Shown: positions 30,356 through 61,713 of the stretch, piece after piece
Layout of the letters: each line of letters begins with the position of its first letter
Numbering within the stretch: the first letter of the stretch is position 1
Assembly (NCBI GenBank): GCA_963783135.1
Contig: CAWAMH010000006.1
Coordinates: forward strand, 21,792 to 85,791
Direction: 5' to 3'
Source of the DNA: an uncultured Chloroflexia bacterium
GTDB lineage: Bacteria > Chloroflexota > Limnocylindria > Limnocylindrales > CSP1-4
Length of the DNA: 64,000 nt
Made by a program: the position numbers and the translations under genes
The notes under the pieces: model-generated
Databases searched by the model: none
Seen by the model: only the letters and a program-made list of their open reading frames with translations
Told to the model about the DNA's origin: nothing

Positions 30356-31298
30356 GTGCGCGTCGCGGTCACTGGGTCGGGCGGGCGGCTCGGTCGGGCC
30401 CTCGATCGCCGCCCTCGCCGACGCGCCGTTCACCGGGCTCGCCGGCCCGATCGCCTGGAGCCGGCCCGACTACGACCTCGACGATCCCGGCGCCGCGGCA
30501 CGTCTCGTCGCGCGCGATCGACCGGAGGTCGTCGTCCACGCCGCGGCCTGGACGGATGTCGACGGCTGCGCAGGCGACCCGGATCTGGCCCTCCGCCGGA
30601 ATGCCGCGGCGACGGCCGAACTGGCCGGGGTCTGTGCCGCGGCCGGGCACGATCTGGTCGTCGTCTCGACGAACGAGGTGTTCGACGGAGCACGGACCGA
30701 TGGCCGGGGCTACCGACCCGACGACCCGACCGTGCCCGCCAACGCGTACGGGGCGAGCAAGCTCGCCGGCGAGCTTGCCGCCAGGTCGGCTTACGCCGAC
30801 CCCGACGTCGCGGGTGGGTCGCATCTGGCGATCGTCCGGACCGCCTGGCTGTACGGTCCGCCCGGGAACGACTTCCCGGCCAAGATCGTCGTCGCGGCGC
30901 TGCGAGCCAAGGCCGAGGGCGATGCCCTTCGGGTCGTGGACGACGAGTACGGCTCGCCGACCTCCGCGGCGGACGTCGCCGAAGCGATCGTCGAGCTCAT
31001 CGGCTCCGGCTCGATCGACGGCACCTTCCACTACGTCGATCTCGGCGCGGTCTCCCGAGCCGCCTGGGCCCGCGAGGTCCTGCGCCTGGCCGGGGTCGAC
31101 GTCGAGCTCGAGGAGGTCCCCGCCACGAGCTGGGTCCGAGCATCGACCCCACCACGCTGGGCGGTCCTCCAGTCGAGCCCGCTCGCCTCGGGGGAGCCGA
31201 TGCGGACCTGGACCGAGGCGCTCGCGGATCACGCCCCGTTCCTGCGCCGGCTGACGTCGTCGCTGGCGGGCGGCGCGCCGGCCGGTGGTCGGTCGTGA
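30356..31298 (+). CDS. rmlD: dTDP-4-dehydrorhamnose reductase, with an apparent frameshift near 30405
   Basis: N-terminus MRVAVTGSGGRLGRAL (GTG start). The remainder sits in another frame (ORF 29568..31298): IVRTAWLYGPPGNDF and the C-terminal RmlD domain. Confidence 0.8.
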
Positions 31299-31885
31299 CG
31301 ACGCCGGAGCGGGCCGCGTCGGGGCTGCCGGGCGTCCGATACGGCGCGGTCGTCCGCCACGTCGATGCGCGCGGCTCGTTCCGCGAGCTGTGGCGCGCGA
31401 GCGCCTACCCGGCCGATGGGATCCCGGCCGATCTGGCCGGCTCCGACGGTTCGCGGTTCGTCCAGGCGAACCTGTCGACATCGGCTGCCGGGGTCCTGCG
31501 CGGGTTGCACTACCACCGCCGGCAGCTCGACCGCTGGATCGTCGCGAGCGGGCAGGCGTTCGTCGCCCTGGTCGATGTCCGGCCGGTCACCGCCGGCACA
31601 GGTCGAGCCGTGGTCGAGACGCGGATCCTCGCGGCCGACGACTGGGTCGAGATCCCGGCCGGGGTGGCCCATGGGTTCCTCGCGGTCGAACCGCTCGAGC
31701 TCGTCTATCTCGTCACCTCCGAGTTCGATGCCAGCGACGAGCTCGGCTTCGCCTGGGACGACCCGGCGGTCGGGGTCGCCTGGCCACTGCCGATCCGGGC
31801 GACCGGTGATGGCCGTCCGATCGTCTCGGAGCGCGATCGGACGAACCCGCCACTGACGGATCTGGTGGCCAGCCTCCGAGGGTGA
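31295..31885 (+). CDS. rmlC: dTDP-4-dehydrorhamnose 3,5-epimerase (cupin)
   Basis: The GTG start forms a GTGA overlap with the rmlD stop. Motifs GVLRGLHYH and VAHGFLA. Confidence 0.85.
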   Translation: MTTPERAASGLPGVRYGAVVRHVDARGSFRELWRASAYPADGIPADLAGSDGSRFVQANLSTSAAGVLRGLHYHRRQLDRWIVASGQAFVALVDVRPVTAGTGRAVVETRILAADDWVEIPAGVAHGFLAVEPLELVYLVTSEFDASDELGFAWDDPAVGVAWPLPIRATGDGRPIVSERDRTNPPLTDLVASLRG

Positions 31886-33586: not shown

Positions 33587-36500
33587 GTGACCGACGACCG
33601 CGTCCGACCGTGCACGGCAGCACCGACCGATCGTCGGGCCGTGCAGCCGCTCCGTCGCGCCGCACAACGCGTCGGCGCCGGGCTGCTCGCCGTGGCGCTC
33701 CTGGCCGAGCTCGGGTCGTCGGCGGCACAGGCCGTGAACCCCTCGATCGCCACCGCCGGCCCGCGCACCGCCGGCGCGGCGAGCGGACGATCGACGTCGC
33801 CGGCCGTCCAGGCCCGGGACGACGGGCCGGCGGGAGCCGAGTCGACCCGCGTCGAGGCGGCGCAGCGGCGCGCGGCTCGGACCCCGGTCCCCGACGGACC
33901 CGCGACCCAGGAGCCGTCGATCATCGCCCTCGATGCCGAGGCGCACGCGCACGACCGGATCGCCTTCCCGCCGGGCGCCCGGGTGACCGTCCCGTTCGTT
34001 CCGCGGCTCGATGACGGGTGGTCGGTCGGCGGAGCCGCACCCCAGCGGCTGCCGGCCGGTGCGGCATCCGGCCGGGCGATGGCGCTGGCCGCCCAGGGCT
34101 CGGTCTGGGCCCATGGATCCATGGCGGCGGAGGCACGGGACGCGACCACGGACCCGACCGCCGACCCCGTCGGGGAGCATCCGATCGACGGGCCGGCCGG
34201 CACCGCCGCGCCGGCGGCCGATCCGGTCTCGGTGGTCGTGCCCGCGCCCGATGTCGCGGACCCGCCGGCCGCCACCGACCTCCGTCGCCAGGTCTTCGGG
34301 TTCCTGCCCTATTGGGAGCTGTCGGACTCATCGACCCGACTGGACTACCAGCTGCTCTCGACCGTGGCCTACTTCGGGGTCGGCGCGGAAGCCGACGGCG
34401 ATCTGCGCAAGCGGGACCGAGACGGGTCGATCTCGGTCGGCTGGGCGGGCTGGACGAGCTCGCGGATGACCTCGGTCATCCGGGCCGCGCACAAGCGTCG
34501 GACACGGGTCGTCCTGACGGTCCAGTCGTTCGCGTGGACCTCGAGCCAGGCCGACACCCAGTCCGCGCTGCTCGGGAGCGCGGCCGCCCGCCAGCGGCTC
34601 GCCCGCCAGATCGCGGCGGCGGTCCGTGACCGGGGCGCCGACGGGGTGAACCTCGACTTCGAGCCGCTCGTCTCCGGCCGGGCCGATGAGTTCGTCGCGC
34701 TCGTCCGGTCCGTCCGCGCCGCCCTCGACAAGGTCCACAAGGGCTATCAGGTGACGTTCGACACGACCGGCTCCATCGGCAACTACCCGATCGAGGCCGC
34801 CACCGCGCCCGGCGGCGCCGACGCGATCTTCGTCATGGGCTACGACTACCGGACCGCATCCGCGAGCTCCGCCGGGTCGATCGCCCCGCTCGGCGGTCCC
34901 GGGTACGACCTCGTCGATACGATCCTCGCGTTCACCGACCGGGTCTCGCCGAGCAAGCTCATCCTCGGCCTCCCGTATTACGGTCGGGCCTGGTCGACCA
35001 CGTCGAACAAGCCGCGGGCCGCCACGCGGACCGGCGCGAAGTACGGTTGGTCGTCGTCGGTCACCTACGCCAACGCCGTCGCGCTGGCCAAGAAGCACCA
35101 CCGACGCTACGACCGGCGCGACGCCTCCGCCTGGTTCGCCTACAAGCGTCGGAACTGCACGGCGACGTACGGCTGCGTGACGACCTGGCGCGAGGTCTAC
35201 TACGACGACGTCCAGAGCCTCCGGGCGAAGTACGACACGATCAATCGCTACGGGCTGCGCGGGGCCGGGATCTGGGCGCTCGGCTACGAGGATGCGCGAC
35301 CGGAGCTGGCCAAGGTGATCGTCGCCAAGTTCCTCCACGACACGACACCGCCCGAGACCGGGATCGATGTCCTGCCCGCGCATCAGGGTGACGAGGGATT
35401 CGTCGTGGGCTGGTCGGCGCTCGACATGAACCCGATCCGCGGCTACGACGTCCAGGTGTCGATCGACGGCGGGCCCTGGCGAGCCTGGCTGACCAGGACG
35501 AAGGCGACCCAGGCCGTCTGGCTCGGGCGGAGCGCCCACGCCTATGCGTTCCGGGCGCGAGCGACCGATGCGAAGGGCAATCGCGGCACGTGGGACATCG
35601 CCAGCCTGCCGAGCCCCCGACCCACGCTCCACAAGGGCGGGTTCGCGACCGTTCGGACGGGCTCCCTGACCGTGCGCAGCCGACCCGACACCTCGAGCGG
35701 CGCCGTCAGCCAGCTCGAGCGCGGCGACGTCGTGGCGATCACCGGCGGCCCGGTCGCCGCCGACGGCTACACCTGGTTCAAGATCAGCGGGCCGCTCCGG
35801 TCCTGGGGGCCGACCGAACCGGTCCGGACCGGCGTGTGGGTCGCCGGGCGCAACGGGTCGACCACGTATCTCACGCCGCGGACGCCACCGAACACGACGA
35901 TCGTCGCCGCCGGGATCGCCGGGCTGACCTTCGGAGCCGGTGGATCGGGGTCCGTCGGCTCGTCCGAGGCGGCGAAGGCCGCGCGCGCGTTCTCGCCGAA
36001 CGGCGACACCTCCGAGGATCGCCTGACCCTGCGCTGGACGAACGCCCTCGCCTTCGACAGCCTGACGCTCCGGGTCTTCCGGCCGACCGGCACGCTGCTC
36101 GGCACGCGAGCGGTGACGGCGACCGGTGCGGGCGCGCAGGCGTGGGCCTGGGACGGCTCCATCGGCGGCCACCGACTCGCCGATGGACGCTACCTCGTCC
36201 AGCTCGTCGGCCGCGCCGATGGGCACACCTACACCGCACCGTTCCGGCCGCTGCTCGCCGCCCAGGTCGCCGCGTACGCGGTCACGATCGACACGGTGCG
36301 CCCGAGGCTCACGAGCGCCGCGATCGGTGGCCACCTGGTCTCGCCGCTGCGCGACGGACGACACGATGCCGTCGCCGTCAGCGGGGCGTCCAGCGGGGCG
36401 ACCCGCTGGCGACTCACCGTCGCTGCATCGAGCGGACCGAGCCCTGGCGCCGTCATCCGGACGATCGCTGGGCGCGGCGGTCGACCCAGGACCTCGTGGG

Positions 36501-37510
36501 ACGGCCGGACGGACGCTGCCAGCCCGGCTCGCGACGGGCGCTACCGCGTCAGCCTGGCCGTCCTCGACGCTGCCGGCAACTTCGCGACCCGGTCCTGGAC
36601 GGTCGTCGTGGATGGGACCGCGCCGACGACGAGTGTCTCGACCGAACCGGCATCGATCTCGCCCGACGGCGACGGCGCGGCCGATAGCGCCGTGATCCGC
36701 TGGGCAGCCGCCGAGCCGGCGAAGGTGACGACTCGGATCTACCGCGGCACGCGGCTTGTGCGGACCTACGCGGGCGGCGGCACGTCCAAGGCGGGCGCGA
36801 CCCGTTGGGACGGCCGGACGCGGGCGAAGACGCGCCTCGCCGACGGCACCTACCGGGCCGTCCTCACCGCCCAGGATCCGGCCGGCAACCGACGCGCCAC
36901 CAGCGTTACGATCCGGCTCGACCGGACCGCCGGTTGGCTGCGCTGGGCACCGACGGCTTTCTACCCACAGGACGGTGACCGGCTCGCCCGGACGAGTCGC
37001 GCGACGTTCAAGCTCGCCCGGGCCGCACGGACGTCGCTCACGATCGTCGACACCGGCGGCCATGTCGTCCGCACGGCCTGGACCGACCGGAAACGGGCCG
37101 CCGGGACCGTCCGCTGGCGGTGGGACGGTCGTGCGGCAGGTGGCGCGATGGTCGCCCCGGGCACCTATGCGCTGGTCCTGAGCGCACGAAGCGGCTACGG
37201 CACGACGGTCCTGCGCCGGGCGATCGTCGTGGACGCCTTCGCGATCTCGCTGTCCTCGACGAAGCCGAAGGCCGGCCGGCCGCTCGTCGTCTCGTTCCGA
37301 TCGACCGAGCCGCTGTCGAGCCGGCCGATCGTCACCCTGGACCAGACCGGTCGCCCGCCGGTCCGGAAGATCGCCACCCCGGTCGGTCCCGATCGGTTCA
37401 CGGTCCGGTTCGTCGTCGCGGCCGGGCGCGGGCCGGCGACGATCACGGTCAGAGCCACCGACGGAGCCGGTCACCGGAACGCGTCGACCTCGAGGCTGGC
37501 GGTCCGCTAG
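33587..37510 (+). CDS. Large secreted GH18-family (YaaH/SleL-like) glycoside hydrolase with an SH3b domain and four FlgD-Ig-like domains
   Basis: GAGGAGG ribosome-binding site plus a GTG start. Arg-rich signal peptide RRAAQRVGAGLLAVALLAELGSSAAQA. GH18 motifs FGFLPYWE, DGVNLDFEP, IFVMGYDY and LILGLPYYGRAW. SH3b domain (GFATVRTGSLTVRSRPDTSSGAVSQLERGDVVAI...YTWFKI). Four repeats of FlgD-Ig type (FSPNGDTSEDRLTLRW, ISPDGDGAADSAVIRW, FYPQDGDRLARTSRATF and others). Confidence 0.8.
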   Translation: MTDDRVRPCTAAPTDRRAVQPLRRAAQRVGAGLLAVALLAELGSSAAQAVNPSIATAGPRTAGAASGRSTSPAVQARDDGPAGAESTRVEAAQRRAARTPVPDGPATQEPSIIALDAEAHAHDRIAFPPGARVTVPFVPRLDDGWSVGGAAPQRLPAGAASGRAMALAAQGSVWAHGSMAAEARDATTDPTADPVGEHPIDGPAGTAAPAADPVSVVVPAPDVADPPAATDLRRQVFGFLPYWELSDSSTRLDYQLLSTVAYFGVGAEADGDLRKRDRDGSISVGWAGWTSSRMTSVIRAAHKRRTRVVLTVQSFAWTSSQADTQSALLGSAAARQRLARQIAAAVRDRGADGVNLDFEPLVSGRADEFVALVRSVRAALDKVHKGYQVTFDTTGSIGNYPIEAATAPGGADAIFVMGYDYRTASASSAGSIAPLGGPGYDLVDTILAFTDRVSPSKLILGLPYYGRAWSTTSNKPRAATRTGAKYGWSSSVTYANAVALAKKHHRRYDRRDASAWFAYKRRNCTATYGCVTTWREVYYDDVQSLRAKYDTINRYGLRGAGIWALGYEDARPELAKVIVAKFLHDTTPPETGIDVLPAHQGDEGFVVGWSALDMNPIRGYDVQVSIDGGPWRAWLTRTKATQAVWLGRSAHAYAFRARATDAKGNRGTWDIASLPSPRPTLHKGGFATVRTGSLTVRSRPDTSSGAVSQLERGDVVAITGGPVAADGYTWFKISGPLRSWGPTEPVRTGVWVAGRNGSTTYLTPRTPPNTTIVAAGIAGLTFGAGGSGSVGSSEAAKAARAFSPNGDTSEDRLTLRWTNALAFDSLTLRVFRPTGTLLGTRAVTATGAGAQAWAWDGSIGGHRLADGRYLVQLVGRADGHTYTAPFRPLLAAQVAAYAVTIDTVRPRLTSAAIGGHLVSPLRDGRHDAVAVSGASSGATRWRLTVAASSGPSPGAVIRTIAGRGGRPRTSWDGRTDAASPARDGRYRVSLAVLDAAGNFATRSWTVVVDGTAPTTSVSTEPASISPDGDGAADSAVIRWAAAEPAKVTTRIYRGTRLVRTYAGGGTSKAGATRWDGRTRAKTRLADGTYRAVLTAQDPAGNRRATSVTIRLDRTAGWLRWAPTAFYPQDGDRLARTSRATFKLARAARTSLTIVDTGGHVVRTAWTDRKRAAGTVRWRWDGRAAGGAMVAPGTYALVLSARSGYGTTVLRRAIVVDAFAISLSSTKPKAGRPLVVSFRSTEPLSSRPIVTLDQTGRPPVRKIATPVGPDRFTVRFVVAAGRGPATITVRATDGAGHRNASTSRLAVR

Positions 37511-38395: not shown

Positions 38396-39618
38396 TCAGA
38401 CGGCGAACCGACTCGGCGCCGACGCCCCGCTCGGCGACGGGCTCGGCGAGACGCCGGGGGATGCCGCGGGCGGAGGCGCACCCTTGGTGATCGTGACCTT
38501 CGTCCCGGTCGGCATGACGTTGATGAACGTCTGACCGGCCGTGAGGGTCACCTCCTGGCCGGCCGCGTCGTAGAACTTCGTCGGGCCGGTGAGTGACTTC
38601 TTCCGCCAGGTGCCCTTGATCGTCCGGCCGTTCGTCGAGATCCAGGCGATGCCGCTGCCGATGACCTTCGCCTCGAGACGATGCTTCGGGCTGCCGTCGT
38701 TGAGCGGCCCGAAGCGCATCAGCATGACGATCACGTTCTTCGGTGCGACCCGCTTCTTCGTCGCCGCATCCTTCTGCTTGCCCTCGACGCTGACCGAGCG
38801 CAGGTACGTGTTCGTCTCCCGGTTGTACTCGTAGCGGATCGAGCTGGTCGGGTAGGCGAAGCTGATCCTGCCGCCGACGGGGCGCGCCTCGAGCGGCGCA
38901 TCCGGCGCGAACTGCCAGATCGGCTGGTAGTCCCGCGCCTTCGCCCCGAGCCGCCTGGCGAGCGCGTCGAGCTGCTTGCCGGTCGTGTACAGGTTGTGCG
39001 GCGCGAACCGATTGCAGACCCGCCGGAACGTCCCGGCCCAGCGGAACTCGTCGGCGTTGTAGACGAGCTGGCCGTTGCCCTTGGCCGCCAGGGTCTTCAT
39101 CGCCTGGGGTGATCCACCGGCATGGGCGTAGACCGCCCGCCACTCGGCCGCCCAGGCGATGTAGTAGTAGCGCGAGCTCCGGACCGGGCCCACGTCGGTC
39201 GGCCGGTTCTCACCGAAGACCATCATGTAGCGCGGGATGCCGCCTTCGGCCGGTGCCTGCCAGACGATCGACGCCGAGCTGAACCCGGATTGCGGGCGGG
39301 CGGGCGAGAGGTCGTCGATCATCACCGCGATCGGATGGCGTCGGGCGGCGGCCGGCAGTGACCGGCAGGCCGGTCAGCGGCGCAGGCACGAGGATCGGGC
39401 GTGGGTTCCGGCGTCGGCGTCGGCAGCGGCGTCGCCGTCGGGCTCGGCGTGGATGACGGGCTGCTCGTCATCGAGGGTGGTGGCGCCGCGCTCGGTGAGG
39501 CCGGGAGGCTCGCGATGGCCGGCTGACTGGGGGTCGAGCTGCCACAGGCGCCGGCGAGCACGCCGACGACCAGGGCGAGGGCCGACCAGCGCAGCGGGAC
39601 CACGACTCGGAACGGCAT
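38396..39618 (-). CDS. DUF3048 (YerB-like) lipoprotein, with an apparent frameshift between the lipobox/linker and the domain near 39330-39400
   Basis: ORF 39322..39618 supplies the lipobox LAGACGSS and a Pro/Ser/Thr linker. ORF 38396..39325 supplies the DUF3048 core (DDLSPARPQSGFSSASIVWQAPAEGGIPRYMMVF). Confidence 0.6.
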
Positions 39619-39755: not shown

Positions 39756-40224
39756 ATGTCCGACCCATCGAAGCCCGAGTCGCCCGAGAGCGCGCCACCC
39801 AGCCGTCGAGATCGTCCCGACCCCGACCGGGGTGGACACGTCGATCCCCGATGTCCAGGTCCAACGTGGTGCCGTCGGGGCGCTCCAGGCGGGCGAGGTC
39901 GTCGTCTCGGTCGGGGCGATCGGAGCGGCCCGGGCGGAGCGGGTCTCCGTCGAGCTCGGCGCGATCGGCGCGGCCGCGGCCCAGGAGATCCGTGCGTCGA
40001 CGGCCAGCGTCGGCCTCGTCCTCGCCCAGGACGCCCGCTTCGAGCAGGCGCTCGTCCGCTCGGTCCTTGCCCAGCGGGTGACCCTGGGGCGCGGATCCGC
40101 GGCCGGGATCGTCATCGCCGCGCACGCCGACGGCGAAGGCCGGCCGCTGCTCGATTGGCGCGGGGGAGCCGTCGCCGGGACCATCGTCGCCCTCGTCTGG
40201 CTCGTCGTCCGCCGGCTTCGCTGA
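39756..40224 (+). CDS. Small membrane-anchored protein of unknown function, with an apparent frameshift near 39800
   Basis: GAGGAG ribosome-binding site plus an ATG at 39756. The sequence continues in ORF 39832..40224 with a C-terminal TM helix (AVAGTIVALVWLVVRRL). Tentative. Confidence 0.3.
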
Positions 40225-40270: not shown

Positions 40271-41473
40271 ATGTTCGTCGTCACCCGATCTGGAGTGGAG
40301 CCCGGAGGCACCGTGATCGATCCGTCCGCGCGCAGCGCGAGCGCGCACGTGATCCCGGCGGTGCGGCCCGACGTGGGGCCGGAGGAGTCGGCTGCGGTCG
40401 CCGACGTGCTCCTGTCGGGCGCGACCCAGCCGGGTCGGCGGGTCGACGAGATCGAGGCGCGCTGGGCCGACTACGTCGGGGTCCGTCACGCGGTCGCGGT
40501 GGTCAACGGGACCGTGGCCCGGATGTGCATCCTGGCCGGCATCGGGATCGGACCGGGCGACGAGGTCGTGACCGTCAGTCACACCGTCAATGCCACGGTC
40601 AGCTCGATCCTGTTCACCGGGGCCAGTCCGGTCTTCGTCGACATCGAGCCCGACACGTACCTCATCGACGCCGCCCGGATCGAGGCCGCGCTCACCGCCC
40701 GGACGCGGGCGATCTATCCCGTCCATCTCCACGGGCTCGTGGCCGACATGGACATGATCAGCGCGATCGCCGATCGGCACGGACTGGCGGTCGTCGAGGA
40801 CGGCGGTGGCTCGCACGGGGCGACGTTCCGCGGCCGTCGGGCGGGATCGTGGGGCCATGGCGCATTCGGGCTGTACGGTGCCGGCGAGGGCGGCCTGATC
40901 ACGACCGACGACGACCGCCTCGCCGATTGGATCCGCCGCTACCGCGACCACGGCCGACGCGGCCGCCAGGCCGAGATCCTCGGGTTCGACTTCCGCCTCT
41001 CCGAGGTGGCGGCGGCGATCGGGCTCGTCGGACTCGACCGGCTCGGGTCCGGGATCGCCGCCCGGCGGACCATCGCGGCCCGCTACGACGCGGCGTTCGC
41101 CGACCTGCCGATCCGCCGGCCGCTCGTGCCCGTCGGTCGCAAGCACGTCTTCCATCGCTACACGATCGGTCTCGGATCGGCCCGGGATGCGGTCGCCGCC
41201 GAGCTGGCCGAGCACGGTGTCGAGGTGGCGATCGAGTACCCCGTCCCGATCCACCGCCAGCCGTACGTGCTCGAACGGGGCATCGACGCGGACCTGCCGG
41301 TCACCGACGCGGCCGCCGAAGGCTCGCTCGGCCTGCCGATCTACGCCGGGTTGACCAGTGACGACGAGCGACGCGTCGTCGACGCGGTCCGCGAGGCCGT
41401 CGGTCGTCACGTGAGCGAGCCGGTCCGCGTTCCCAGCCGGGCGCGGGCCCGGGCCACGCCCGCCCGACCGTGA
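40271..41473 (+). CDS. DegT/DnrJ/EryC1/StrS-family sugar aminotransferase homologue lacking the PLP-binding lysine segment
   Basis: Fold-type I aminotransferase conservation across the whole length (AVVNGTVARMCILAGIGIGPGDEVVTVSHTVNAT, AIYPVHLHGL). Where the conserved 'FSFxPxKNL' block should be, the sequence reads GAFGLYGAGEGG, with no lysine. An alternative start is the GTG near 40349. Confidence 0.7.
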   Translation: MFVVTRSGVEPGGTVIDPSARSASAHVIPAVRPDVGPEESAAVADVLLSGATQPGRRVDEIEARWADYVGVRHAVAVVNGTVARMCILAGIGIGPGDEVVTVSHTVNATVSSILFTGASPVFVDIEPDTYLIDAARIEAALTARTRAIYPVHLHGLVADMDMISAIADRHGLAVVEDGGGSHGATFRGRRAGSWGHGAFGLYGAGEGGLITTDDDRLADWIRRYRDHGRRGRQAEILGFDFRLSEVAAAIGLVGLDRLGSGIAARRTIAARYDAAFADLPIRRPLVPVGRKHVFHRYTIGLGSARDAVAAELAEHGVEVAIEYPVPIHRQPYVLERGIDADLPVTDAAAEGSLGLPIYAGLTSDDERRVVDAVREAVGRHVSEPVRVPSRARARATPARP

Positions 41474-42873
41474 CGTCGGCGGGGCCGGTGCCGGGCCGGC
41501 TCCGGGTCGCGATCGTCGCGGCGAACACGTTCGAGTACGAGTCGCGCCTGCTCAAGACCGCTCAGACCCTCGCCGGCGACGGCCACGAGGTGACCGTGGT
41601 GGCGTTCGCCGGCCCGGGTCTGCCGGCGTCGGCCTCGATCGGGCCCCGGATCGAGCTTCGGCGTGTCGAGCTCGACCGGCGGATCGCCGAGGGGCTCCGC
41701 CCGCTGCCGAGCGGCGTCCGGGCGGCCGTCCTCCGCGCGACGGGCCTGGCGGCCGACGCCACGGCGTTGCCGACGCACGGAGGCCCGCGGCATCGATCGG
41801 TTCCGCGCACCGCTCCGCCGGGGCCTCGAGATCCTCGCCACGATCCGGCGTGGGGGATCGTGGGCCCGCGCCGTGGCCGACGCGGCCCCGGGTGCCCAGG
41901 TCGTCCATGCCAAGGCGCTGATCGCGCTGCCGGTCGCCCGCTCGGCGGTGAGGATCACTGCCGGTCGGGACGGACGGTTCGTCTACGACGTCGCCGACCT
42001 CCACACCGAATCGGCCCGACTCGTGCGGCTGCCGGGTGCGCTGCGCGAGCTCGTCCGGCGCCGCGAGGGCCGGCTCGTGCGCGAGGCGGCCGGCGTCCTC
42101 GCCGCGACGCCGGCGATGGCCGCCGAGGTCGCCCGCCGCTTCCGGGTCGTCGAACCGGTCGTGCTGCTGAACTGCCCGCCGGCCTGGCGGCCGGAGATCG
42201 CCGGCGCGATCCGATCGGATCGGCTGGCGGACGCGCTCGGGCTCGGATCCGGACCCGACCGGCGGCCGATCGTCCTGTACCAGGGCGCCTTCCGGGTCGA
42301 TCAGGGCATCGAGGAACTCGTGGCCGCCACGGACGATCCCGCGCTGGTCGCGAGCGGCGCGCTCGTCGCGTTCCTGGGCTTCGGCCACCTCGAGGGGTGG
42401 CTGCGGGCCGAGGCGGCCCGTCGGCCCGACCGGCTGGCGGTCCTGCCGGCGGTCCCCGAGGCCGAGCTCCTGGACTGGACCGCCGGCGCCGACGTCGCCT
42501 TCGTCGGGGCCCCGCCCCGGACCCTCAACCAGCGACTGACCTTGCCGAACAAGCTCTTCCAGTCGTTGATGGCCGGAGTCCCGATCGTCGTCGGGACCGG
42601 GACCGAGCACTGCCGGCTCACGGAGGCGGAGGTCGTCGGGCCGCTGCTGTGACGTGGACGCGCCGGCATCGATCGCGGCCGCCGTCGCCGACCTGCTCGC
42701 GATGGATCCGGCCGAACGCGAGGCGCTGCGGGCCCGGTGCCGGACGATCGCGCTCGAGAAGTACAGCTGGGAGACGACCCGGGGTGGGCTCGTCGAGCTC
42801 TATCGCCGCCTGGCGGACACTGGCGACGCGAGCGGCTGGGGCTCCGCTGCCGACGCTCGAGGCGCAGCCATGA
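41470..42873 (+). CDS. GT4 (GT-B fold) glycosyltransferase with a long disordered insertion; about 3 apparent frameshifts near 41775, 42645 and 42830
   Basis: N-domain RVAIVAANTFEYESRLLKTAQTLAGDGHEVTVVAF. C-domain in ORF 41663..42652 (PIVLYQGAFRVDQGIEEL, EX7E-like region, GVPIVV). The tail continues in frame 0 (CDVDAPASIAAAVADLL...YSWETT...ELYRRL) and the stop probably overlaps the next gene as ATGA at 42870-42873. Confidence 0.6.
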   Translation: MTSAGPVPGRLRVAIVAANTFEYESRLLKTAQTLAGDGHEVTVVAFAGPGLPASASIGPRIELRRVELDRRIAEGLRPLPSGVRAAVLRATGLAADATALPTHGGPRHRSVPRTAPPGPRDPRHDPAWGIVGPRRGRRGPGCPGRPCQGADRAAGRPLGGEDHCRSGRTVRLRRRRPPHRIGPTRAAAGCAARARPAPRGPARARGGRRPRRDAGDGRRGRPPLPGRRTGRAAELPAGLAAGDRRRDPIGSAGGRARARIRTRPAADRPVPGRLPGRSGHRGTRGRHGRSRAGRERRARRVPGLRPPRGVAAGRGGPSARPAGGPAGGPRGRAPGLDRRRRRRLRRGPAPDPQPATDLAEQALPVVDGRSPDRRRDRDRALPAHGGGGRRAAAVTWTRRHRSRPPSPTCSRWIRPNARRCGPGAGRSRSRSTAGRRPGVGSSSSIAAWRTLATRAAGAPLPTLEAQP

Positions 42874-44264
42874 GCGCCGTCTCCGGGTCCGCCCCGCGTC
42901 CGGCGGGCGACGCACGACGCGGATCGCATTGCTCCTCAACAACGGGTTCGTCGCAGACTCGCGCTCCTGGAAGCTCGCCCGCAGCCTGGCCGACCGCGGG
43001 CTGGACCGTCACCGTGGTGGCGCGGACGGGCGAGGGGCTCCCGGCGCGGGAGGACCGTGACGGGTTCCGGGTGGTCCGGATCGCCCAGCCACGGCCGCTC
43101 CGCTGGCTGCCGTCACCGCATCTGCCGGAGGCCGCGACGGGCGATCCTCGACGTCCGGCGTCGGCGTCGGCGCCGAGCGGCCCGTTCCCAGCTCGGCGGA
43201 GGTCGCTCCTCGGCCGTGCGCGGTCGGTCGCGATCGAGCTCGTCGGGCGGCCCGTCCAGGCGGTGCGCTACCTGCGCCTCACCCGCCTGTGGGCCGAACG
43301 CATCGGCGCGGACGTCCCGGCCGTGGACATCTGGCAGGCCGAGGGGATGATCACGCTGCCGGTCGCCCTCGCCCTGCGCCGCCGGCGTGGTGGGCGGGTC
43401 GTCTACGACGCGCGCGACCTCCAGGTCGACAGTACCCGGTTCGCGCGGCTGCCCGGTCCGTGGCGCCGGCTCCTTGCCCGTCGCGAGCGCAGCTGGGCGC
43501 GCTCGGCGGATGCGACGATCACGGCCAACGAGCCGTACGCCGACGTCCTTCGGCGGAAACAGGGGATCGATGCGACGGTCGTGTTCAACGGCCCGGTCGG
43601 GACCGACCCGGAGACGGACGCGGCCGGCGCCTCGTCGACCTCGGCTGGAGCGGCGATCCGGGAGCGACTGGCCATCCCGGCGTCGATCCCGATCGTGCTC
43701 TGCCTGGGCAATGTCGCGCCCGGTCGGGGCGTCGAGCAGCTGTGCCGAGCCATGGCCGAGGTCCCCGTGGCGGTGCTCCTCGTGGTCGGTCCCGGTGGCC
43801 CGTTCCGTGAGCAGGTCCGGGCGGAGGCCGCGACGCTGCCGCACGCCGATCGGATCCGGTTCCTGCCGGGTGTCGCGCCCGAGGAGATCCCGGCCTGGAC
43901 GGCCGCTGCCGACGTGGCCGCGATGCCGATCCAGCCGACGACCCTCAACCACCGCCTGACGACGCCCACGCGGTTGTTCGACGCGCTCGGTGCCGGCGTC
44001 CCGATCGTCGCGTCCGATCTGCCCGGGATGGCCGCGATCGTCCGGGCGACCGGAGCCGGCGTGGTGTGCGATCCGGCGGATCCGAACGCGATCGCTGCGG
44101 CGATCCGGGAGATCCTCGAGGCGTCCCCCGAGCGCCGGGCGGCCTATCGTCGGGCGTCGCTCGCCGCGGGCCACGGGGTCTACGCCTGGGAGCGCCAGGT
44201 CGAGGCGCTGCTCGGCGTCTACCGTCGGCTGGGGACTGCGACTCCGTCGCCGCGCCGCGACTAG
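42870..44264 (+). CDS. GT4 glycosyltransferase, paralogue of the preceding gene; about 2 apparent frameshifts near 42920 and 42995
   Basis: MSAVSGSAPRPAGDARR followed by RIALLLNNGFVADSRSWKLARSLADRG in frame 2, then WTVTVVARTGE and the rest in frame 0. C-domain motifs PIVLCLGNVAPGRGVEQL and GVPIVASDLPGM. Confidence 0.6.
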   Translation: MSAVSGSAPRPAGDARRGSHCSSTTGSSQTRAPGSSPAAWPTAGWTVTVVARTGEGLPAREDRDGFRVVRIAQPRPLRWLPSPHLPEAATGDPRRPASASAPSGPFPARRRSLLGRARSVAIELVGRPVQAVRYLRLTRLWAERIGADVPAVDIWQAEGMITLPVALALRRRRGGRVVYDARDLQVDSTRFARLPGPWRRLLARRERSWARSADATITANEPYADVLRRKQGIDATVVFNGPVGTDPETDAAGASSTSAGAAIRERLAIPASIPIVLCLGNVAPGRGVEQLCRAMAEVPVAVLLVVGPGGPFREQVRAEAATLPHADRIRFLPGVAPEEIPAWTAAADVAAMPIQPTTLNHRLTTPTRLFDALGAGVPIVASDLPGMAAIVRATGAGVVCDPADPNAIAAAIREILEASPERRAAYRRASLAAGHGVYAWERQVEALLGVYRRLGTATPSPRRD

Positions 44265-44307: not shown

Positions 44308-45159
44308 CTAGCGCCGCCCCGCCGAACCGGCGGCGCCGGGGACCGCGGCGAACCGCTGTGCGTCCTCCTCGGCCAGCAGCTTCCGCTGGGCGACCCGCTC
44401 GCGGTACAGATCGACGATCGCTCCCGGATCGCCCTCCTGGATGATCGTGCCCTTCTCGAGCAGGATCGCCCGGTTGCAGAACTCGGCCACGAAGGTGAGG
44501 TCGTGGGTCACCAGGACGATCGCTTTCGCCCGGTTGACGAGCTCGCGGACCCGGGCCTGGCTGCGTGCCCGGAACGTCTGGTCGCCGGTCCCGAGGACCT
44601 CGTCGAGCAGCAGGATGTCGGGTGTGATCGCGGTCGCGATCGAGAACCCGAGTCGGGCGCGCATCCCCGTCGAGTACGTCTTGACCGGCGCATCGATGAA
44701 CTGGCCGATGTCGGCGAACTCGATGATCGACGGCGCGAGCTCGTCCATCTGGTCCTGGTCGATCCCGAGGAACGCCCCGGCCAGGTCGATGTTGTCGCGG
44801 CCGGTCAGCTCGTGCTCGAAGCCGGCCCCGAGCGTCAGCAGCGTCGACACCCGACCGTGGGTCAGGATCTCGCCTTCGGTCGGCTCGAGGATCCCGGCGA
44901 GCGCGAGCAGGAGCGTGCTCTTGCCGGCGCCGTTCGGCCCGATCACCGCGAGCGATTCGCCCTGGGCGAGCTTGAACGACAGGTGACGCAGCGCCCAGAA
45001 GTGGTTCTCCCGGCCGGCGTCGCGGCGGAGCATCCCGGCCAGGGATCCCTTGAGCGTCGTCCGCTTCGTGAGGCGCAGGTCGTAGCGGATGCCGAGGTCG
45101 CGGATGTCGACCGCCGGCTCGGCCTCGCGGCCGACCTCCTGCTGGATCATCGGGTCCAT
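44308..45159 (-). CDS. wzt: ABC transporter ATP-binding protein, polysaccharide export type (Wzt/TagH/KpsT-like), short form without a C-terminal carbohydrate-binding domain
   Basis: Walker A GPNGAGKST, ABC signature YSTGMRARL and Walker B ILLLDEVLGTGD. Size and N-terminal region are typical of Wzt/TagH. Confidence 0.85.
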   Translation of the reverse strand: MDPMIQQEVGREAEPAVDIRDLGIRYDLRLTKRTTLKGSLAGMLRRDAGRENHFWALRHLSFKLAQGESLAVIGPNGAGKSTLLLALAGILEPTEGEILTHGRVSTLLTLGAGFEHELTGRDNIDLAGAFLGIDQDQMDELAPSIIEFADIGQFIDAPVKTYSTGMRARLGFSIATAITPDILLLDEVLGTGDQTFRARSQARVRELVNRAKAIVLVTHDLTFVAEFCNRAILLEKGTIIQEGDPGAIVDLYRERVAQRKLLAEEDAQRFAAVPGAAGSAGRR

Positions 45160-46019
45160 CACAGGATCCTCGCGAACGCCGGCTCGGCGCGCTTGAAGAT
45201 GTAGATCGCGACGAGCAGCAGCCCGAGCGAGAACACGAGGAGAAGGGCCAGCCCGAACCAGTCCGGCGGGCTGGTGCCCCAGGTCACGGCTCGGTACGAG
45301 TCGAACAGGACGGCGAACGGGTTGAGCGACAGGATCGTGTACAGCTGCGGGTGCGACTTCGCGATCACGTCGAGCGAGTAGAGCGCCGGCGACAGGTAGA
45401 ACCACAACCGGAGCACGTGGCGCAGGACGTTCTGGATGTCGCGGAAGAACGCGTTCAGCGATGACGAACAGGACGCCCATCGCCATCGTGAACACGAACT
45501 GGACACCCGCGATCAGCGGCAGGGTCAGGATCCAGAGCGCTGATCCGCTGCGGGTAGAAGAGCGTAGACGATCGCCAGTGCGATGAGTCCGAACACGAAG
45601 CTGACCGTGCCCGCGACCACGGCCGACGTGGGTAGCACGATCTTCGGGAACTGGACCTGGCGGATGAGGCTCTGGCGGCCGGTGACCGACAGCGTCGCCT
45701 CGTTGAGGGTCGTGCTGAACCACTTCCACGGCAGGATCGCCGCGAACAGGAACAGCGGGTAGTCCGGGATCGTCTTCTGGAAGATGATCGTGACCAGGAC
45801 GTAGTAGACGGCCATCTGGAGGAGCGGATCGATGATCCACCAGAGCTGGCCGAAGGCCGTGTCGGCGTGCGTCCGCTTGAGCTCCGCCCCGACGAGGTAG
45901 CGCGTCAGCCGGCGTCGGCCGAGGATCTCGCCGATGCCGGCCCGGACCAGGGCGATGGCGCCGCGCCGACGGACGGAGGGTCGCGGGGAGGCGATCGCCT
46001 CGGTGGTGGGAGCGCTCAT
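45159..46019 (-). CDS. wzm: ABC-2 type polysaccharide export permease (Wzm/TagG-like), with about 2 apparent frameshifts near 45480 and 45540
   Basis: N-terminal part in ORF 45525..46019 (LKRTHADTAFGQLWWIIDPLLQMAVYYVLV). C-terminal part in ORF 45159..45506 (FFRDIQNVLRHVLRLWFYLSPALY). ATGA overlap with wzt. Confidence 0.7.
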
Positions 46020-49441: not shown

Positions 49442-50545
49442 ATGGCGGAGACCGTAGCACACGTCGTCGGCGCGCGGCCCAACTTCATGAAGGCCGCTCC
49501 GGTCATCCGTGCGCTCACCGCGAAGGGCGTCCCGCAGGTCATCGTCCACACCGGCCAGCACTACGACGACCGGATGTCCGAGGTGTTCTTCCGCGAGCTC
49601 GATCTGCCCCGTCCCGACCTCAACCTCGGGGTCGGGTCGGGCAGTCACGCGGAGCAGACGGCCAGGATCATGGTCGCCCTCGAGGGCGCCTTCGCGGACC
49701 TCGATCCGGCGCTCATCGTGGTCTACGGCGACGTGAACTCGACCCTCGCTGCCGCCGTGGTCGCAGCGAAGCTCGGCCGGCCCATCGCCCATGTCGAGGC
49801 CGGCCTGCGGAGCTTCGACCGATCGATGCCCGAGGAGGTCAACCGGGTCGTCACCGACGTCCTGTCCGACCTCCTGTTCACGACGAGCCCCGAGGCCGAG
49901 ACCAACCTCGCGCGCGAGGGGATCGACCTGGGCCGCGTCCACTTCGTGGGCAATCCGATGATCGACACGCTCCTCGCCAACCTCGACCGGTTCGACGTCG
50001 CCGCGGCCCGCGCCCGGCTCACGCTCGCCGGCCGGTACGGTGTCGCGACCCTCCACCGCCCGGCCAACGTCGACGACCCGGTCACAGCCGGGCGGATCGT
50101 CGCCGCGCTGCGCGGCGTCGCGGAGCTCGTGCCGCTCGTCATCCCGCTCCACCCGCGCGGGCGGGCGACGCTCGAGGCCGCCGGCCTGGCGGGCGATCCG
50201 CGGGTAACGGTCATCGACCCGCTCGGCTATATCGACTTCATGTCGCTCGTCCGTGGCGCGGCGATCGTCGTGACCGACTCGGGCGGGATCCAGGAGGAGA
50301 CGACGATCCTCGGGGTCCCGTGCCTGACCGTCCGGCCCAACACGGAGCGTCCGATCACGATCAGCCACGGGACGAACCGACTCGTCGAACCCGAGGACGT
50401 GGCCGCGGTGGCGCGCGTCGTCCTCGACGGACCGTCGGGCGATCCGCCATCCCCGCCACCGCTCTGGGACGGCGCCGCCGGTGAGCGGATCGCGTCGATC
50501 GTCGAACGCTGGCTGGCGGCCCCGGCCGCGGTCGGCCGACCCTGA
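49442..50545 (+). CDS. wecB: UDP-N-acetylglucosamine 2-epimerase (non-hydrolysing)
   Basis: HVVGARPNFMKAAPV, HTGQHYD, GDVNSTLAAA and VTDSGGIQEE motifs, with a GAAGGGGA ribosome-binding site. Confidence 0.9.
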   Translation: MAETVAHVVGARPNFMKAAPVIRALTAKGVPQVIVHTGQHYDDRMSEVFFRELDLPRPDLNLGVGSGSHAEQTARIMVALEGAFADLDPALIVVYGDVNSTLAAAVVAAKLGRPIAHVEAGLRSFDRSMPEEVNRVVTDVLSDLLFTTSPEAETNLAREGIDLGRVHFVGNPMIDTLLANLDRFDVAAARARLTLAGRYGVATLHRPANVDDPVTAGRIVAALRGVAELVPLVIPLHPRGRATLEAAGLAGDPRVTVIDPLGYIDFMSLVRGAAIVVTDSGGIQEETTILGVPCLTVRPNTERPITISHGTNRLVEPEDVAAVARVVLDGPSGDPPSPPPLWDGAAGERIASIVERWLAAPAAVGRP

Positions 50546-50663: not shown

Positions 50664-51968
50664 ATGAACGAAGACCGTCGCCTGGCCGTGATCGGCCTGG
50701 GCTACGTCGGGCTCCCGCTTGCCATCTCGTTCGTCGAGGCGGGGCTGGAGGTCGAGGGCGTCGACGCCCACCCGGGCCGGATCGCCGAGCTGAGCGCCGG
50801 CCGATCGCCGATCGACGACATCCCCGACGACCGTCTGACCGGGGCGCTCGCCGCGGGCCTCCGGCTGGTCGGGACGGATGCGGCCCGCCTGACCGAGGCG
50901 GATGTGATCTTCGTCTGCGTCCCGACCCCGATCGATCAGGCCAAGGACCCCGATCTCGGCCCGGTCCTGTCGGCGGCCGAGCTCATCCGGCGCCATCTCC
51001 GGAAGGGCCAGCTCATCATCCTCCAGTCGACGACGTTCCCCGGGACGACGACCGGTCCCTTCCGCAAGGTCCTCGAGCAGAGCGGCCTCATCGCCGGACG
51101 GGACTTCGATCTCGCCTTCGCGCCCGAGCGGGTGAACCCGGGCGATCCGGCCAGCGCCGCCAAGGACGTCCCGCGTCTCGTCGGCGCGACGACGCCCGAG
51201 GCGACCGACCGGGCGGCCGCGCTTCTCGGCCGGATCAACAACCACGTCGTCAAGCTGTCGTCACCCGATGCCGCCGAGCTGGCGAAGATCCTCGAGAACG
51301 TCTTCCGGAACGTGAACATCGCGCTCGTCAACCAGCTCGCGCTGCTCTGCGAGCGGATGGGCATCGACGTCTGGGAGGTGATCTCGGCCGCCGCGACCAA
51401 GCCGTTCGGGTTCATGCGCTTCACGCCGGGTCCGGGCGTCGGCGGGCACTGCATCCCGGTCGACCCGTACTACCTCGCCTGGCGGGCACGCGAGTTCGAC
51501 TTCGTCGACCGCTTCGTCGAGCTCGCCGGCGACATCAACTACGCGATGCCGCGCCACGTCGTGGACCTCGTCGCCGAGGCGCTCAACGATCGGGGCAAGG
51601 CGCTCAAGGGCGCCCGGGTCGGTGTTCTCGGGGTCGCGTTCAAGCCGGGTGTCCGCGACGCGCGGAACTCGCCGGCCGCCGCGATCCTGGCCGGCCTGGC
51701 GACCCGAGGTGCGGTCGTCGATTACCACGACCCGCACGTCCCACGGTTCCGCGACACCGACGGCGTCGCGCGCGATTCGGTCGGGCTCGATGCGGTCCTC
51801 GCCGACAGCGACGTGGTGGTCGTCGTGACGGCCCACCGTGAGATCGACTGGGACCGCGTCTACGGGTCCGCCGGACTCGTCGTGGATACGGTCGACAGCT
51901 CGCGCGGCCGGACGGCCACCGACCGCCAGGTGCTCCGGCTCGGCGCCGGCTGGACGGTCCGGGCGTGA
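50664..51968 (+). CDS. wecC: UDP-N-acetyl-D-mannosamine dehydrogenase (nucleotide-sugar dehydrogenase family)
   Basis: Rossmann motif IGLGYVGLPLA, catalytic region GFMRFTPGPGVGGHCIPVDPYYL, and a GGAGGA ribosome-binding site. The adjacent wecB suggests the product is UDP-ManNAcA. Confidence 0.8.
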   Translation: MNEDRRLAVIGLGYVGLPLAISFVEAGLEVEGVDAHPGRIAELSAGRSPIDDIPDDRLTGALAAGLRLVGTDAARLTEADVIFVCVPTPIDQAKDPDLGPVLSAAELIRRHLRKGQLIILQSTTFPGTTTGPFRKVLEQSGLIAGRDFDLAFAPERVNPGDPASAAKDVPRLVGATTPEATDRAAALLGRINNHVVKLSSPDAAELAKILENVFRNVNIALVNQLALLCERMGIDVWEVISAAATKPFGFMRFTPGPGVGGHCIPVDPYYLAWRAREFDFVDRFVELAGDINYAMPRHVVDLVAEALNDRGKALKGARVGVLGVAFKPGVRDARNSPAAAILAGLATRGAVVDYHDPHVPRFRDTDGVARDSVGLDAVLADSDVVVVVTAHREIDWDRVYGSAGLVVDTVDSSRGRTATDRQVLRLGAGWTVRA

Positions 51969-60424: not shown

Positions 60425-61713
60425 GTGCTCGACGCGCTCCTCGCCGAGGCGCGCCTGCGCTGGGGCCTGGACCCTGCCGGCGGGGTCCAGGTCGTGGCCG
60501 CCGAGCACCTGATCGGGACGCCGATCGAGCCCTCGCGGCCGGTCCTCGTCGTCCCGCTGGCGATCCTGCTCGGTCGGGCCGGCGGACCCGCCGACGAGGC
60601 CGGACACCGACGGCGCGCGTCCGGTCGCCGCCCCGTTGCCGGGCCGCGCGGGCCCGGGCGGGGGCGAGCCGATCGCGCTCCTCGGCCGGCTCTACCCGGC
60701 GGACCATCCGGTCGGTCGGTTCCGGGTCGCGGCGGAGACGACGGTCGGTGCGCTCGGACCGGACGACCTGACCGCGCCGCTCTACCTCCGCCCGGTCAGC
60801 CCCGAGGTCGGGGTCGCCGGGCCATGGGCGATGCCCTGGATCTCCGCCCGGCTGCGGCAACCGGACGGCTGTCCGTGGGACCGCGAGCAGACCCACGAGA
60901 CGCTCCGGAAGCACCTCCTCGAGGAGAGCTACGAGGTCTACGACGCGCTCGGTCGGGGCGCTTCGGCCGATCTGGCCGAGGAGCTCGGCGACCTCCTCCT
61001 CCAGGTCGTCCTCCACGCCCAGCTCGCGCGCCGAGGAGGGCGTCTTCGACCTGACCGATGTCCAGCGTGTCCTGGGTGCGAAGATCGTCCGGCGCCATCC
61101 CCATGTGTTCGGTGAGGCCGACGCCCGGACAGCGGCCGACGTCACCCGCCAATGGGAGGCGATCAAGGCCGTGGAGCGGGCCGACGCAGCCGACACCGCG
61201 GCCCGCGCGACCGGCCATCCATCGGCCGATGGGGCTGCCCCAGCCGATGGCGCCGACCCGGCTCCGGTCACCCCGCGCAGCGCGCTCGACGGGATCAGCC
61301 GGTCGATGCCGGCGCTGGCCGCGAGCCAGGAGATGCAGGAGCGGGCCGCCGCCCTGGGCTACGACTGGCCGACCGTCGACGGGATCGTGGCCAAGGTCCA
61401 CGAAGAGCTCGCCGAGCTCGCCGCGGCGGGCGACGCGGCCGAGCGGATGGAGGAGGTCGGCGATCTCCTGCTCGTCCTCGTCAACCTCGCCCGCCGGAAC
61501 GGCGTCGAGGCCGAAGCCGCCTTGCGCGCTGCGAACGACAAGTTCCGGCGTCGGTTCGGCTCGGTCGAGCGGATGGCCGCGGAGCGGGGCGTGGCCCTGC
61601 GCGAGCTCGACTTCGACGCGCTCGACGCGCTATGGGATGCTGCCAAGGACGAGGAGCGGGCCAGCCAGGCCGGCGCGTCGGCCCAGGTCGCCACGAAGGA
61701 GCCGCCCCGATGA
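60425..61713 (+). CDS. mazG: MazG-family nucleoside-triphosphate pyrophosphohydrolase (tandem MazG domains, Rv1021-like), with about 2 apparent frameshifts near 60605 and 61030
   Basis: [60 protein letters not shown], and the second domain [41 protein letters not shown]. Sequence is contiguous across three frames. Confidence 0.75.

Follow-up and report, generated by a model that had tools for sequence, protein, structure and literature searches.

The stretch of DNA analysed here, 64,000 nucleotides of contig CAWAMH010000006.1 from an uncultured Chloroflexia bacterium (assembly GCA_963783135.1) and referred to below as the window, carries on its forward strand a gene derived from a WbpE-type sugar aminotransferase of the DegT family, the product of which lacks the Schiff-base lysine. 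The first-pass annotation, made from the DNA letters, assigned the gene to an open reading frame (ORF) at 40271–41473 (+). This ORF of 400 amino acids (aa) exists, but its ATG is not the probable start. Judged from the sequence, translation probably begins at GTG 40313, giving a coding sequence (CDS) of 386 aa (40313–41473, + strand) that ends in TGA at 41471–41473, and both this length and this start are common to all close homologues. A ribosome-binding site, GGAGG (40304–40308, +), lies 4 nucleotides upstream of the GTG, and the arrangement ccGGAGGcacc GTG is kept in seven of seven loci of the lineage designated clade A below. The in-frame extension to the first ATG (40271–40312, +) is probably untranslated; its 14 codons are not conserved in the upstream translations of the homologous loci L001, L005, and L006. 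Residue numbers in the following therefore count from GTG 40313. The Pfam profile DegT_DnrJ_EryC1 (PF01041) matches the protein end to end (profile positions 3–360 of 360; 311.2 bits with a cut-off of 19.8; E-value, 1.4e-92), as expected from the similarity to the DegT family previously described along the whole protein. The best relatives of solved structure are perosamine synthase, a sugar transaminase of Archaeoglobus (7b0d), WbpE, and ArnB, with E-values of 1e-68 to 1e-58. The window protein is a member of PF01041 by sequence and fold but fails the defining catalytic features of the family, and for this reason its annotation as an aminotransferase is unwarranted.

Alignments to the solved enzymes place a gap of five residues exactly at the segment of the Schiff-base lysine, which reads FSFFGnkiitTGEGG in perosamine synthase, FSFYptknlGAyGDGG in 7b0d, and FGLYG-----AGEGG in the window protein (40865–40894, +; junction at 40879/40880). 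Comparison with 36 close orthologues that carry the lysine identifies the lost residues as T-K-N-M-T, with the Schiff-base lysine among them, and Gly186 replaces the serine found five positions before that lysine. At the codon level, a clean 15-bp gap lies between GGT at 40877–40879 and GCC at 40880–40882; the in-frame loss of about five residues noticed in the first-pass annotation thus amounts to exactly five codons, with the frame kept. A second deletion, of one codon, is located in a loop, where RERYHHE has become RGR-QAE.

A homologue search covering 5.8 billion proteins returned 20 tight clusters (P0001–P0020, about 98 member sequences) that are 78–89% identical to the window protein and are designated clade A. 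They originate from ENA, JGI, NCBI, and Logan assemblies of Chloroflexota/Candidatus Limnocylindrales; full-length members have 385–386 aa, three clusters consist of shorter fragments, and the identical gap is found in 20 of 20 clusters. The next matches, from about 70% identity downward and designated clade B, nearly all read FSLY[AG]TKNMTTGEGG. The DNA loci of clade A were gathered protein by protein. A scan of genome representatives yielded only two clade A species (L005 and L006), and a scan of JGI metagenome contigs yielded no clade A locus (best match, 66% identity). The 15-bp gap is common to the DNA copies in the window, L001, L005, L006, and L165–L167, with synonymous differences on both sides of it, and L168 and L169 encode 386-aa proteins in the same gene order as the other clade A loci. 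Since the gap is shared by independent assemblies that differ in the flanking synonymous positions, the deletion is genuine rather than a read or assembly error, in agreement with the earlier judgement, and is ancestral to a conserved clade.

The loss extends beyond the lysine. In sugar aminotransferases, as described with the structure of Spr1654, the lysine forms the Schiff base with pyridoxal 5'-phosphate (PLP), an aspartate binds the pyridine N1, a histidine or glutamine at Asp+3 binds O3', an aromatic side chain packs against the ring, a serine at Lys-5 and a threonine bind the phosphate, the glutamate of GEGG makes a water-mediated contact, and an asparagine or lysine binds the carboxylate of the amino donor (PMC5936713). 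These roles were mapped to the window protein by alignment rather than from coordinates, and the comparison drew on 18 clade A and 36 clade B sequences. Positions at which each clade has a fixed residue of its own are concentrated in the elements forming the active site. Besides the deletion of T-K-N-M-T, a segment that clade B retains, FSLY has changed to FGLY (S186G), and EDACQAHG to EDGGG[SA]HG (A164G, C165G, and Q166G). In the window, the latter motif reads E-D-G-G-G-S-H-G (40796–40819, +), with the O3' ligand Gln166 replaced by glycine and the N1 partner Asp163, which is invariant in both clades, kept. The aromatic position on the PLP ring, phenylalanine in 36 of 36 clade B sequences, is Val92 in the window protein (40586–40588, +) and valine, glycine, threonine, or alanine in seven, nine, one, and one of the clade A sequences, respectively. 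G-Y-N-F-R has become G-F-D-F-R (40982–40996, +), so that the donor-binding asparagine is now Asp226. The changes in this region and the loop comprise L209R, N212D, Q213H, M215R, a one-residue deletion, H220A, and N226D, and Q282R and Y308E are found further along the protein. Of the contacts listed, only Asp163 and Thr67 are unchanged across clade A, with Glu192 now glutamate or glutamine and Arg228 now arginine, histidine, or glutamine. The Schiff-base lysine typical of PF01041 falls inside the deleted segment, and among the remaining contacts to cofactor and amino donor, where Q166G, F92 to V/G/T/A, S186G, and N226D have occurred, only Thr67 is kept.

An alternative lysine taking the place of the lost one was considered and rejected. 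Lysine is entirely absent from ten of the 18 clade A proteins, and none is conserved at any column of the alignment; for these reasons no other lysine can reach the site; an alignment placing a conserved lysine at the catalytic position was looked for and not found. On this sequence evidence, the internal aldimine cannot form and PLP-dependent transamination is excluded.

The gene order around the lysine-bearing relatives reveals where the window gene comes from. Clade B loci run from a DUF3048 gene (− strand) and a small hypothetical gene to a hexapeptide acetyltransferase, DegT, a GFO/IDH/MocA oxidoreductase (best NCBIfam match, UDP-GlcNAc 3-dehydrogenase), a nucleotide-sugar dehydrogenase, a wecB-type 2-epimerase, and glycosyltransferases of family 4 (GT4). 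This set of genes corresponds to the five-enzyme WbpA/B/E/D/I route to UDP-2,3-diacetamido-2,3-dideoxy-mannuronic acid (PMC10622841). The clade A gene sits in the same slot, after the DUF3048 gene (38396–39325, − in the window), which serves as the left-hand synteny anchor common with the lysine-bearing loci, and the small hypothetical gene (39832–40224, +; 130 aa), which is present in lysine-less and lysine-bearing loci alike. It is followed by two GT4 genes, GT4_a and GT4_b, and most loci also have, close by, a pair of ABC transporter genes in divergent orientation. In the window, the GTG start of GT4_a (41470–42900, +) overlaps the TGA stop of the DegT-like gene (GTGA), and a 4-bp stop/start overlap of this kind (GTGA or ATGA) occurs in every clade A locus. 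GT4_b (42999–44264, +), whose relatives match Pfam Glycos_transf_1/Glyco_trans_1_4, is 66% identical to its counterpart in L001. The ABC transporter ATPase and ABC-2 membrane genes of polysaccharide-export type (44335–46019, −; Pfam ABC_tran and ABC2_membrane) are 82% and 63% identical to the L001 genes by tblastn. Neither tblastn nor gene calls detected a WbpB-like oxidoreductase or a WbpD-like acetyltransferase in the window or in any clade A locus examined, and no WbpB homologue on the large clade A contigs was among the best 120 matches listed, which extend down to 74% identity. WbpB and WbpD genes stand beside nearly all lysine-bearing orthologues, L045 being one exception for the WbpB-like neighbour.

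A fossil of the missing acetyltransferase gene is preserved at the 5' end of the window gene. Its first seven codons (40313–40333, +) encode V-I-D-P-S-A-R, identical to the N-terminus encoded by the WbpD-like gene that precedes DegT in lysine-bearing loci. The clade A proteins begin with VIDPSAR..IPAVRPD, the clade B WbpD-like proteins with VIDPSARVHA.., and the clade B DegT proteins with MIPPARPD, the fusion joint of clade A lying at I-P-x-x-R-P-D. It follows from this fossil that the acetyltransferase gene was deleted internally and that its start site and first seven codons became fused to the aminotransferase gene. L170, a more distant genome, shows the order wbpD-like, DegT, wbpB-like, dehydrogenase, epimerase, GT, GT, GT4_a, GT4_b, ABC, and ABC-2, in which GT denotes a glycosyltransferase. 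The clade A arrangement is this order minus the five genes between DegT and GT4_a, and the ABC/ABC-2 block likewise follows GT4_a and GT4_b in L170. The wbpD fossil and the ancestral order in L170 together fix the direction of change. A correspondence of the clade A GT4_a and GT4_b with the glycosyltransferases directly after the epimerase in L002 was rejected at 35–45% identity, their counterparts lying two genes further on, as in L170. In the neighbour-joining tree, clade A is monophyletic (100/100 bootstrap) and placed inside the lysine-bearing Limnocylindrales sequences. The window gene is thus the positional descendant, that is, the orthologue, of the operon's own wbpE-type aminotransferase, from whose surroundings wbpD, wbpB, and their neighbours have been deleted, and the proposal that it is a paralogue has to be given up.

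The sequence of the orphaned gene has been held by selection. By Nei–Gojobori counting, the ratio of non-synonymous to synonymous divergence (dN/dS) within clade A is 0.11–0.20, with a mean of 0.16, at a dS of 0.5–0.8 (21 pairs from seven coding sequences), and is meaningful only by comparison with orthologues, for which it lies at 0.14–0.23 and is 0.18 ± 0.05 over 213 lysine-bearing clade B pairs of matching dN. Constraint is tightest in the segments that once formed the active site, with 0.093 in clade A versus 0.10–0.11 in clade B and 0.18 in the rest of the clade A protein, and the profile along the gene resembles that of the catalytic orthologues. The dN to the outgroup clade is 0.318 for clade A versus 0.233 for the sister clade at equal dS, an excess which indicates that change was rapid along the stem and that purifying selection then resumed. 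The clade A DNA copies contain no frameshift or stop. The gene is maintained via selection on its amino-acid sequence and is not a decaying pseudogene. In the predicted AlphaFold2 (AF2) structure (predicted local distance difference test, pLDDT, 86.4; predicted template modelling score, pTM, 0.86), a short hairpin (E182-186/E194-198) closes over the deletion. Foldseek aligned this model to ArnB (8snj) with template modelling (TM) scores of 0.86/0.90 and to WbpE, perosamine synthase, and DesV with 0.80–0.86, so the fold-type I (aspartate aminotransferase-like) fold is retained as far as the prediction goes.

Lysine loss is rare among the relatives and is not restricted to clade A. The lysine is kept in 171 of the 181 DegT-homologous regions from all loci fetched, the exceptions being clade A and three other cases. 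The first is an identical CDS in a metagenome-assembled genome (MAG) from a fen (L014, PMIE01000088.1) and a metagenome contig (L092), which reads FSLYGSANMTTGEGG, with the lysine changed to alanine, and EDACHAQG. Compared with its closest relatives, L014 shows two clean deletions at the DNA level, one of 585 bp that removed an internal, in-frame part of wbpD and one of 3.6 kb that removed wbpB, the dehydrogenase, and the epimerase. A 40-codon wbpD remnant ORF (VIDPAARV...SAASA*) is seen at L014 9880–10003, and its stop overlaps the GTG start of the DegT gene with the lysine-to-alanine change. This DegT gene now overlaps, by 4 bp, the glycosyltransferase gene found after the epimerase in the usual arrangement, and L014 appears to capture an early step of what the lineage of the window has carried to completion. 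The second case, L037 10001–11125 (MAG CAVZTA010000002.1), is sister to clade A in the tree, reads LYPTDDVATGDGG (lysine to aspartate) and EDAGPADG, and is without Wbp neighbours; its dN/dS of 0.35–0.54 suggests relaxed constraint or decay, unlike clade A. The third, L149 6001–7125 (metagenome contig WNFG01000363.1), is a distant DegT homologue with 42% identity in which the lysine is replaced by methionine (FSFHATMNMTTGEGG), and no WbpB, WbpD, dehydrogenase, or epimerase homologue was found within 6 kb of it. The coincidence of the losses in clade A, L014/L092, L037, and L149 indicates that loss of the lysine accompanies loss of the partner genes, a combination that arose independently at least three times and probably four. 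On at least two of these occasions, deletions on either side left only the aminotransferase gene in place.

We therefore favour, with a probability of roughly 60%, the interpretation that the window gene encodes a pseudo-aminotransferase that arose from wbpE, has been held by selection, and plays a non-catalytic role in glycan assembly. The suggestion made at first sight that the protein is non-catalytic or uses a different mechanism is supported by the absence of any replacement lysine, the replacement of four further contacts, and purifying selection as strong as in the catalytic relatives. In this history, the ancestor was a wbpE-type 3-aminotransferase in a wbpD-wbpE-wbpB-dehydrogenase-epimerase operon for the UDP-2,3-diacetamido-2,3-dideoxy-(gluc/mann)uronic acid pathway. 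Two deletions occurred in the ancestor of one Limnocylindrales lineage, the first removing wbpD and leaving its start site and first seven codons fused to wbpE, and the second removing the genes between wbpE and the GT4 glycosyltransferase pair. The orphaned wbpE then passed through rapid amino-acid change that took its cofactor site apart, with T-K-N-M-T deleted, the glutamine, serine, and aromatic residue changed to glycine or valine, and the asparagine changed to aspartate, and has been under purifying selection since. The present protein may act as a non-catalytic partner, such as a stabiliser, an activator, or a nucleotide-sugar-binding subunit, of GT4_a in an ABC-transporter-dependent glycan assembly locus.

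A scaffolding or regulatory role is what we infer from these data, most likely in partnership with the GT4 glycosyltransferase encoded by the overlapping gene downstream. The arrangement is that of an auxiliary pseudoenzyme, namely an enzyme homologue lacking its catalytic lysine and most cofactor contacts whose gene overlaps a glycosyltransferase gene by 4 bp in all clade A loci. The closest functional analogy is with P450-like glycosyltransferase helpers of the EryCII/DesVIII type, which lack the haem-ligating cysteine. They resemble the window protein as homologues of a tailoring enzyme that serve as non-catalytic partners of a glycosyltransferase encoded nearby, and one study describes the P450 homologue EryCII as an activator of the glycosyltransferase EryCIII (PMC3391682). 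In contrast to the fold-type I PLP fold and the GT4 partner considered here, they have a P450 fold and their partner is a GT1 macrolide glycosyltransferase; they provide an analogy for the mode of action and not a family assignment. A more far-reaching version appears doubtful to us, namely that Limnocylindrales discarding the diacetamido-uronic pathway repeatedly keep wbpE alone, inactivated and with its pocket remodelled, as an obligatory non-catalytic GT4 subunit. Such a subunit would, equally tentatively, be an activator, a chaperone, or a nucleotide-sugar-presenting module of the GT4 machinery.

Several points weigh against this interpretation. The proposed partnership is based on gene adjacency, which is partly a by-product of the deletion history itself. 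Relative to its orthologues in L001, L167, and L169, GT4_a of the window is split over three frames by two +1 insertions near 41775 and 42641, and if these are real, the proposed partner is broken in the window while the DegT-like gene is intact; because frame breaks also occur in other genes of the window, an assembly error is the more probable explanation. A working wbpE/wbpB/wbpD set may exist elsewhere in the clade A genomes, the search having covered the loci. The dN/dS is a crude measure at the G+C content of 72%. The strongest constraint being in the former active site could mean that a ligand-binding or even a catalytic pocket persists. Finally, Asp163, Thr67, and the GxGG turn survive, so that the protein could conceivably still bind a B6 vitamer weakly and non-covalently.

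As the old pocket is still the most constrained region, the most serious alternative is that the protein remains an enzyme working without lysine, either through dehydration of a nucleotide sugar dependent on pyridoxamine 5'-phosphate (PMP), in the manner of ColD, E1, and SpnQ, or through a cofactor-free reaction on a UDP-sugar, although we regard this as improbable. ColD, E1 (RfbH), and SpnQ are functional nucleotide-sugar 3-dehydratases that are naturally without the Schiff-base lysine (PMC8987622), and belong to the same superfamily as the window protein, so that the DegT family does offer a precedent for lysine-free catalysis. The new residues at the site are also fixed rather than random, G164, G165, G166, G186, D226, and E308 each being present in 16–18 of 18 members, and Asp163 and Thr67 are retained. 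However, the dehydratases (3bb8, 2gms, and 3gr9) are weak matches to the window protein, with E-values of 1e-16 to 1e-28 versus 1e-68 for the aminotransferases. They carry a catalytic histidine in place of the lysine (PMC8987622) and keep full PMP binding, whereas in the window protein the segment is deleted and its flank, G-L-Y-G/A-G-E, contains no inserted histidine. E1 and SpnQ additionally possess four cysteines for a [2Fe-2S] cluster (PMC8987622), whereas the window protein has a single cysteine and has lost its cofactor contacts. The residues that hold PLP or PMP, namely the aromatic residue, the Gln/His at O3', and the phosphate-binding serine, are gone, with position 92 now varying among V, G, T, and A, and no 4,6-dehydratase-type supplier of substrate is evident next to the gene.

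Less likely still, the protein could be the non-catalytic half of a heterodimer, lending a trans-acting loop to the one active site of a lysine-bearing DegT paralogue encoded elsewhere. The active sites of sugar aminotransferases are built from both subunits of the dimer (PMC5936713), and many of the fixed changes are located in the 209–232 loop, which reaches the site of the partner. Against such a pairing, the trans-acting residues N226 and R228 are themselves changed or variable, no second DegT homologue was found in the window or within the ±10 kb loci of the relatives, and the 1.10-Mb and 1.02-Mb contigs on which clade A genes are located account for none of the 100 lysine-bearing matches listed.

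Slow decay of a pseudogene whose frame has survived by chance in a very G+C-rich genome is very unlikely. In its favour, the locus has lost the pathway partners, a G+C content of 72% produces many long spurious ORFs, and the related lysine-less gene of L037 does show relaxed constraint. In clade A, however, the dN/dS of 0.16 equals that of functional orthologues and falls to its minimum in the former active-site segments, all full-length clusters have kept 385–386 aa with no frameshift across copies separated by a dS of about 0.5–0.8, the ribosome-binding site and start are conserved, and the replaced residues have themselves become fixed. That the 15 missing bases are a sequencing or assembly error hiding a normal aminotransferase is hardly credible, since, despite the 1-bp indels in neighbouring genes of the window, the gap recurs in independent assemblies from four data sources with differing flanking synonymous codons and is accompanied by many other fixed active-site substitutions.

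Among characterised proteins, the closest point of reference for the pseudo-aminotransferase is WbpE/WlbC, the UDP-3-keto-GlcNAcA 3-aminotransferase of the UDP-ManNAc3NAcA pathway (PDB 3NU7, 3NYT, and 3NYU), with which it shares the Pfam family and the fold. The lysine-bearing orthologues, at about 70% identity, lie in an acetyltransferase/aminotransferase/3-dehydrogenase/6-dehydrogenase/2-epimerase operon, and the window gene occupies the same syntenic slot. The window protein differs in lacking the catalytic lysine and in the replacement of the glutamine, serine, aromatic, and asparagine contacts, and its locus differs in lacking wbpB and wbpD, with the gene fused to seven wbpD codons and abutting a glycosyltransferase gene. 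It would be predicted to show no aminotransferase activity with glutamate and UDP-3-keto-GlcNAcA. Engineered lysine-to-alanine mutants of WbpE (K185A, 3NYS), ArnB (K188A, 4OCA), and perosamine synthase (K186A, 3DR4) have the same fold without the lysine and, according to their entry titles, are folded and bind cofactor and nucleotide sugar. They resemble the natural L014/L092 variant, in which the lysine is changed to alanine and most other contacts are kept. The window protein differs from these point mutants, in which all other PLP contacts are kept, by the loss of a loop segment and four more contacts and by having been under selection since.

To our knowledge, lysine-less members of the DegT family are known only as histidine-containing, PMP-dependent dehydratases. 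No description of a conserved DegT pseudoenzyme stripped of its cofactor site was found in the accessible literature, which excludes most subscription papers, and this is absence of evidence only; a search for PLP-fold pseudoenzymes returned general reviews only.

Other genes of the window give some indication of the glycan chemistry of the organism. A wecB-type UDP-GlcNAc 2-epimerase (49442–50521, +; NCBIfam wecB, 292 bits with a cut-off of 210) and an NDP-sugar dehydrogenase (50664–51962, +; NCBIfam NDP-sugDHase, 386 bits) are only 34–43% identical to the genes of the clade B operon and are paralogues distinct from those of the Wbp-type operon. Judging from these genes, the clade A organisms have probably retained the synthesis of a simpler uronic acid sugar, for example UDP-ManNAcA. 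Genes for an RmlD-type epimerase/reductase and an RmlC-like dTDP-sugar isomerase are located upstream (30381–31879, +), and a dTDP-6-deoxyhexose is probably used by the locus as well. The glycan locus is preceded by a gene for a very large secreted-type protein of about 1250 aa (33740–37486, +), which is conserved in clade A loci and whose relatives contain GH18 (chitinase-like) and FlgD_ig/Big_13 domains. The 130-aa protein encoded at 39832–40224 matched no Pfam or NCBIfam family; it has repetitive V/G/A-rich segments and a hydrophobic C-terminus, and its gene is always found between the DUF3048 gene and the wbp-type genes. At 60425–61674 (+), a homologue of a conserved 403-aa protein (L014 14290–15501) is spread over three frames, consistent with scattered 1-bp indels across this assembly. 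In the clade A cluster P0019, from a 55-kb ENA contig, residues ~270–300 align as though the frame had been lost and regained (PGRPAPRLPPLHHRRWG...), which probably reflects two indel errors of that assembly cancelling each other out.

The automatic annotations of the clade A proteins are "perosamine synthetase", "dTDP-4-amino-4,6-dideoxygalactose transaminase", and "DegT family aminotransferase". Source annotations that name a transaminase or a perosamine synthetase are misleading, and metabolic reconstructions of abundant soil, peat, and groundwater Chloroflexota would consequently predict an amino-sugar step wrongly. The gene provides a well-documented natural case of an enzyme turned into a selected pseudoenzyme, in which the operon of origin is known, the deletions have left visible scars, among them the fused fossil of seven codons, and a burst of change was confined to the active site before constraint returned. 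Independent repeats are available at earlier stages, one with a lysine-to-alanine change in an intact pocket and one with a lysine-to-aspartate change and relaxed constraint. The case is relevant to enzymologists and to the reconstruction of envelope glycan pathways, and would be more so if the role as a partner of a glycosyltransferase were confirmed. Should the protein support a glycosyltransferase, E-D-G-G-G and F-G-L-Y-G-A-G-E-G-G would be a signature by which such proteins can be recognised. If the obligatory-subunit version were true, the clade A proteins would give the P450-like glycosyltransferase helpers EryCII and DesVIII their first counterpart with a PLP fold, and ordinary WbpE-type enzymes would moonlight as glycosyltransferase partners. 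A supporting role of this kind would point to a hidden structural function of sugar aminotransferases in the assembly of envelope glycans.

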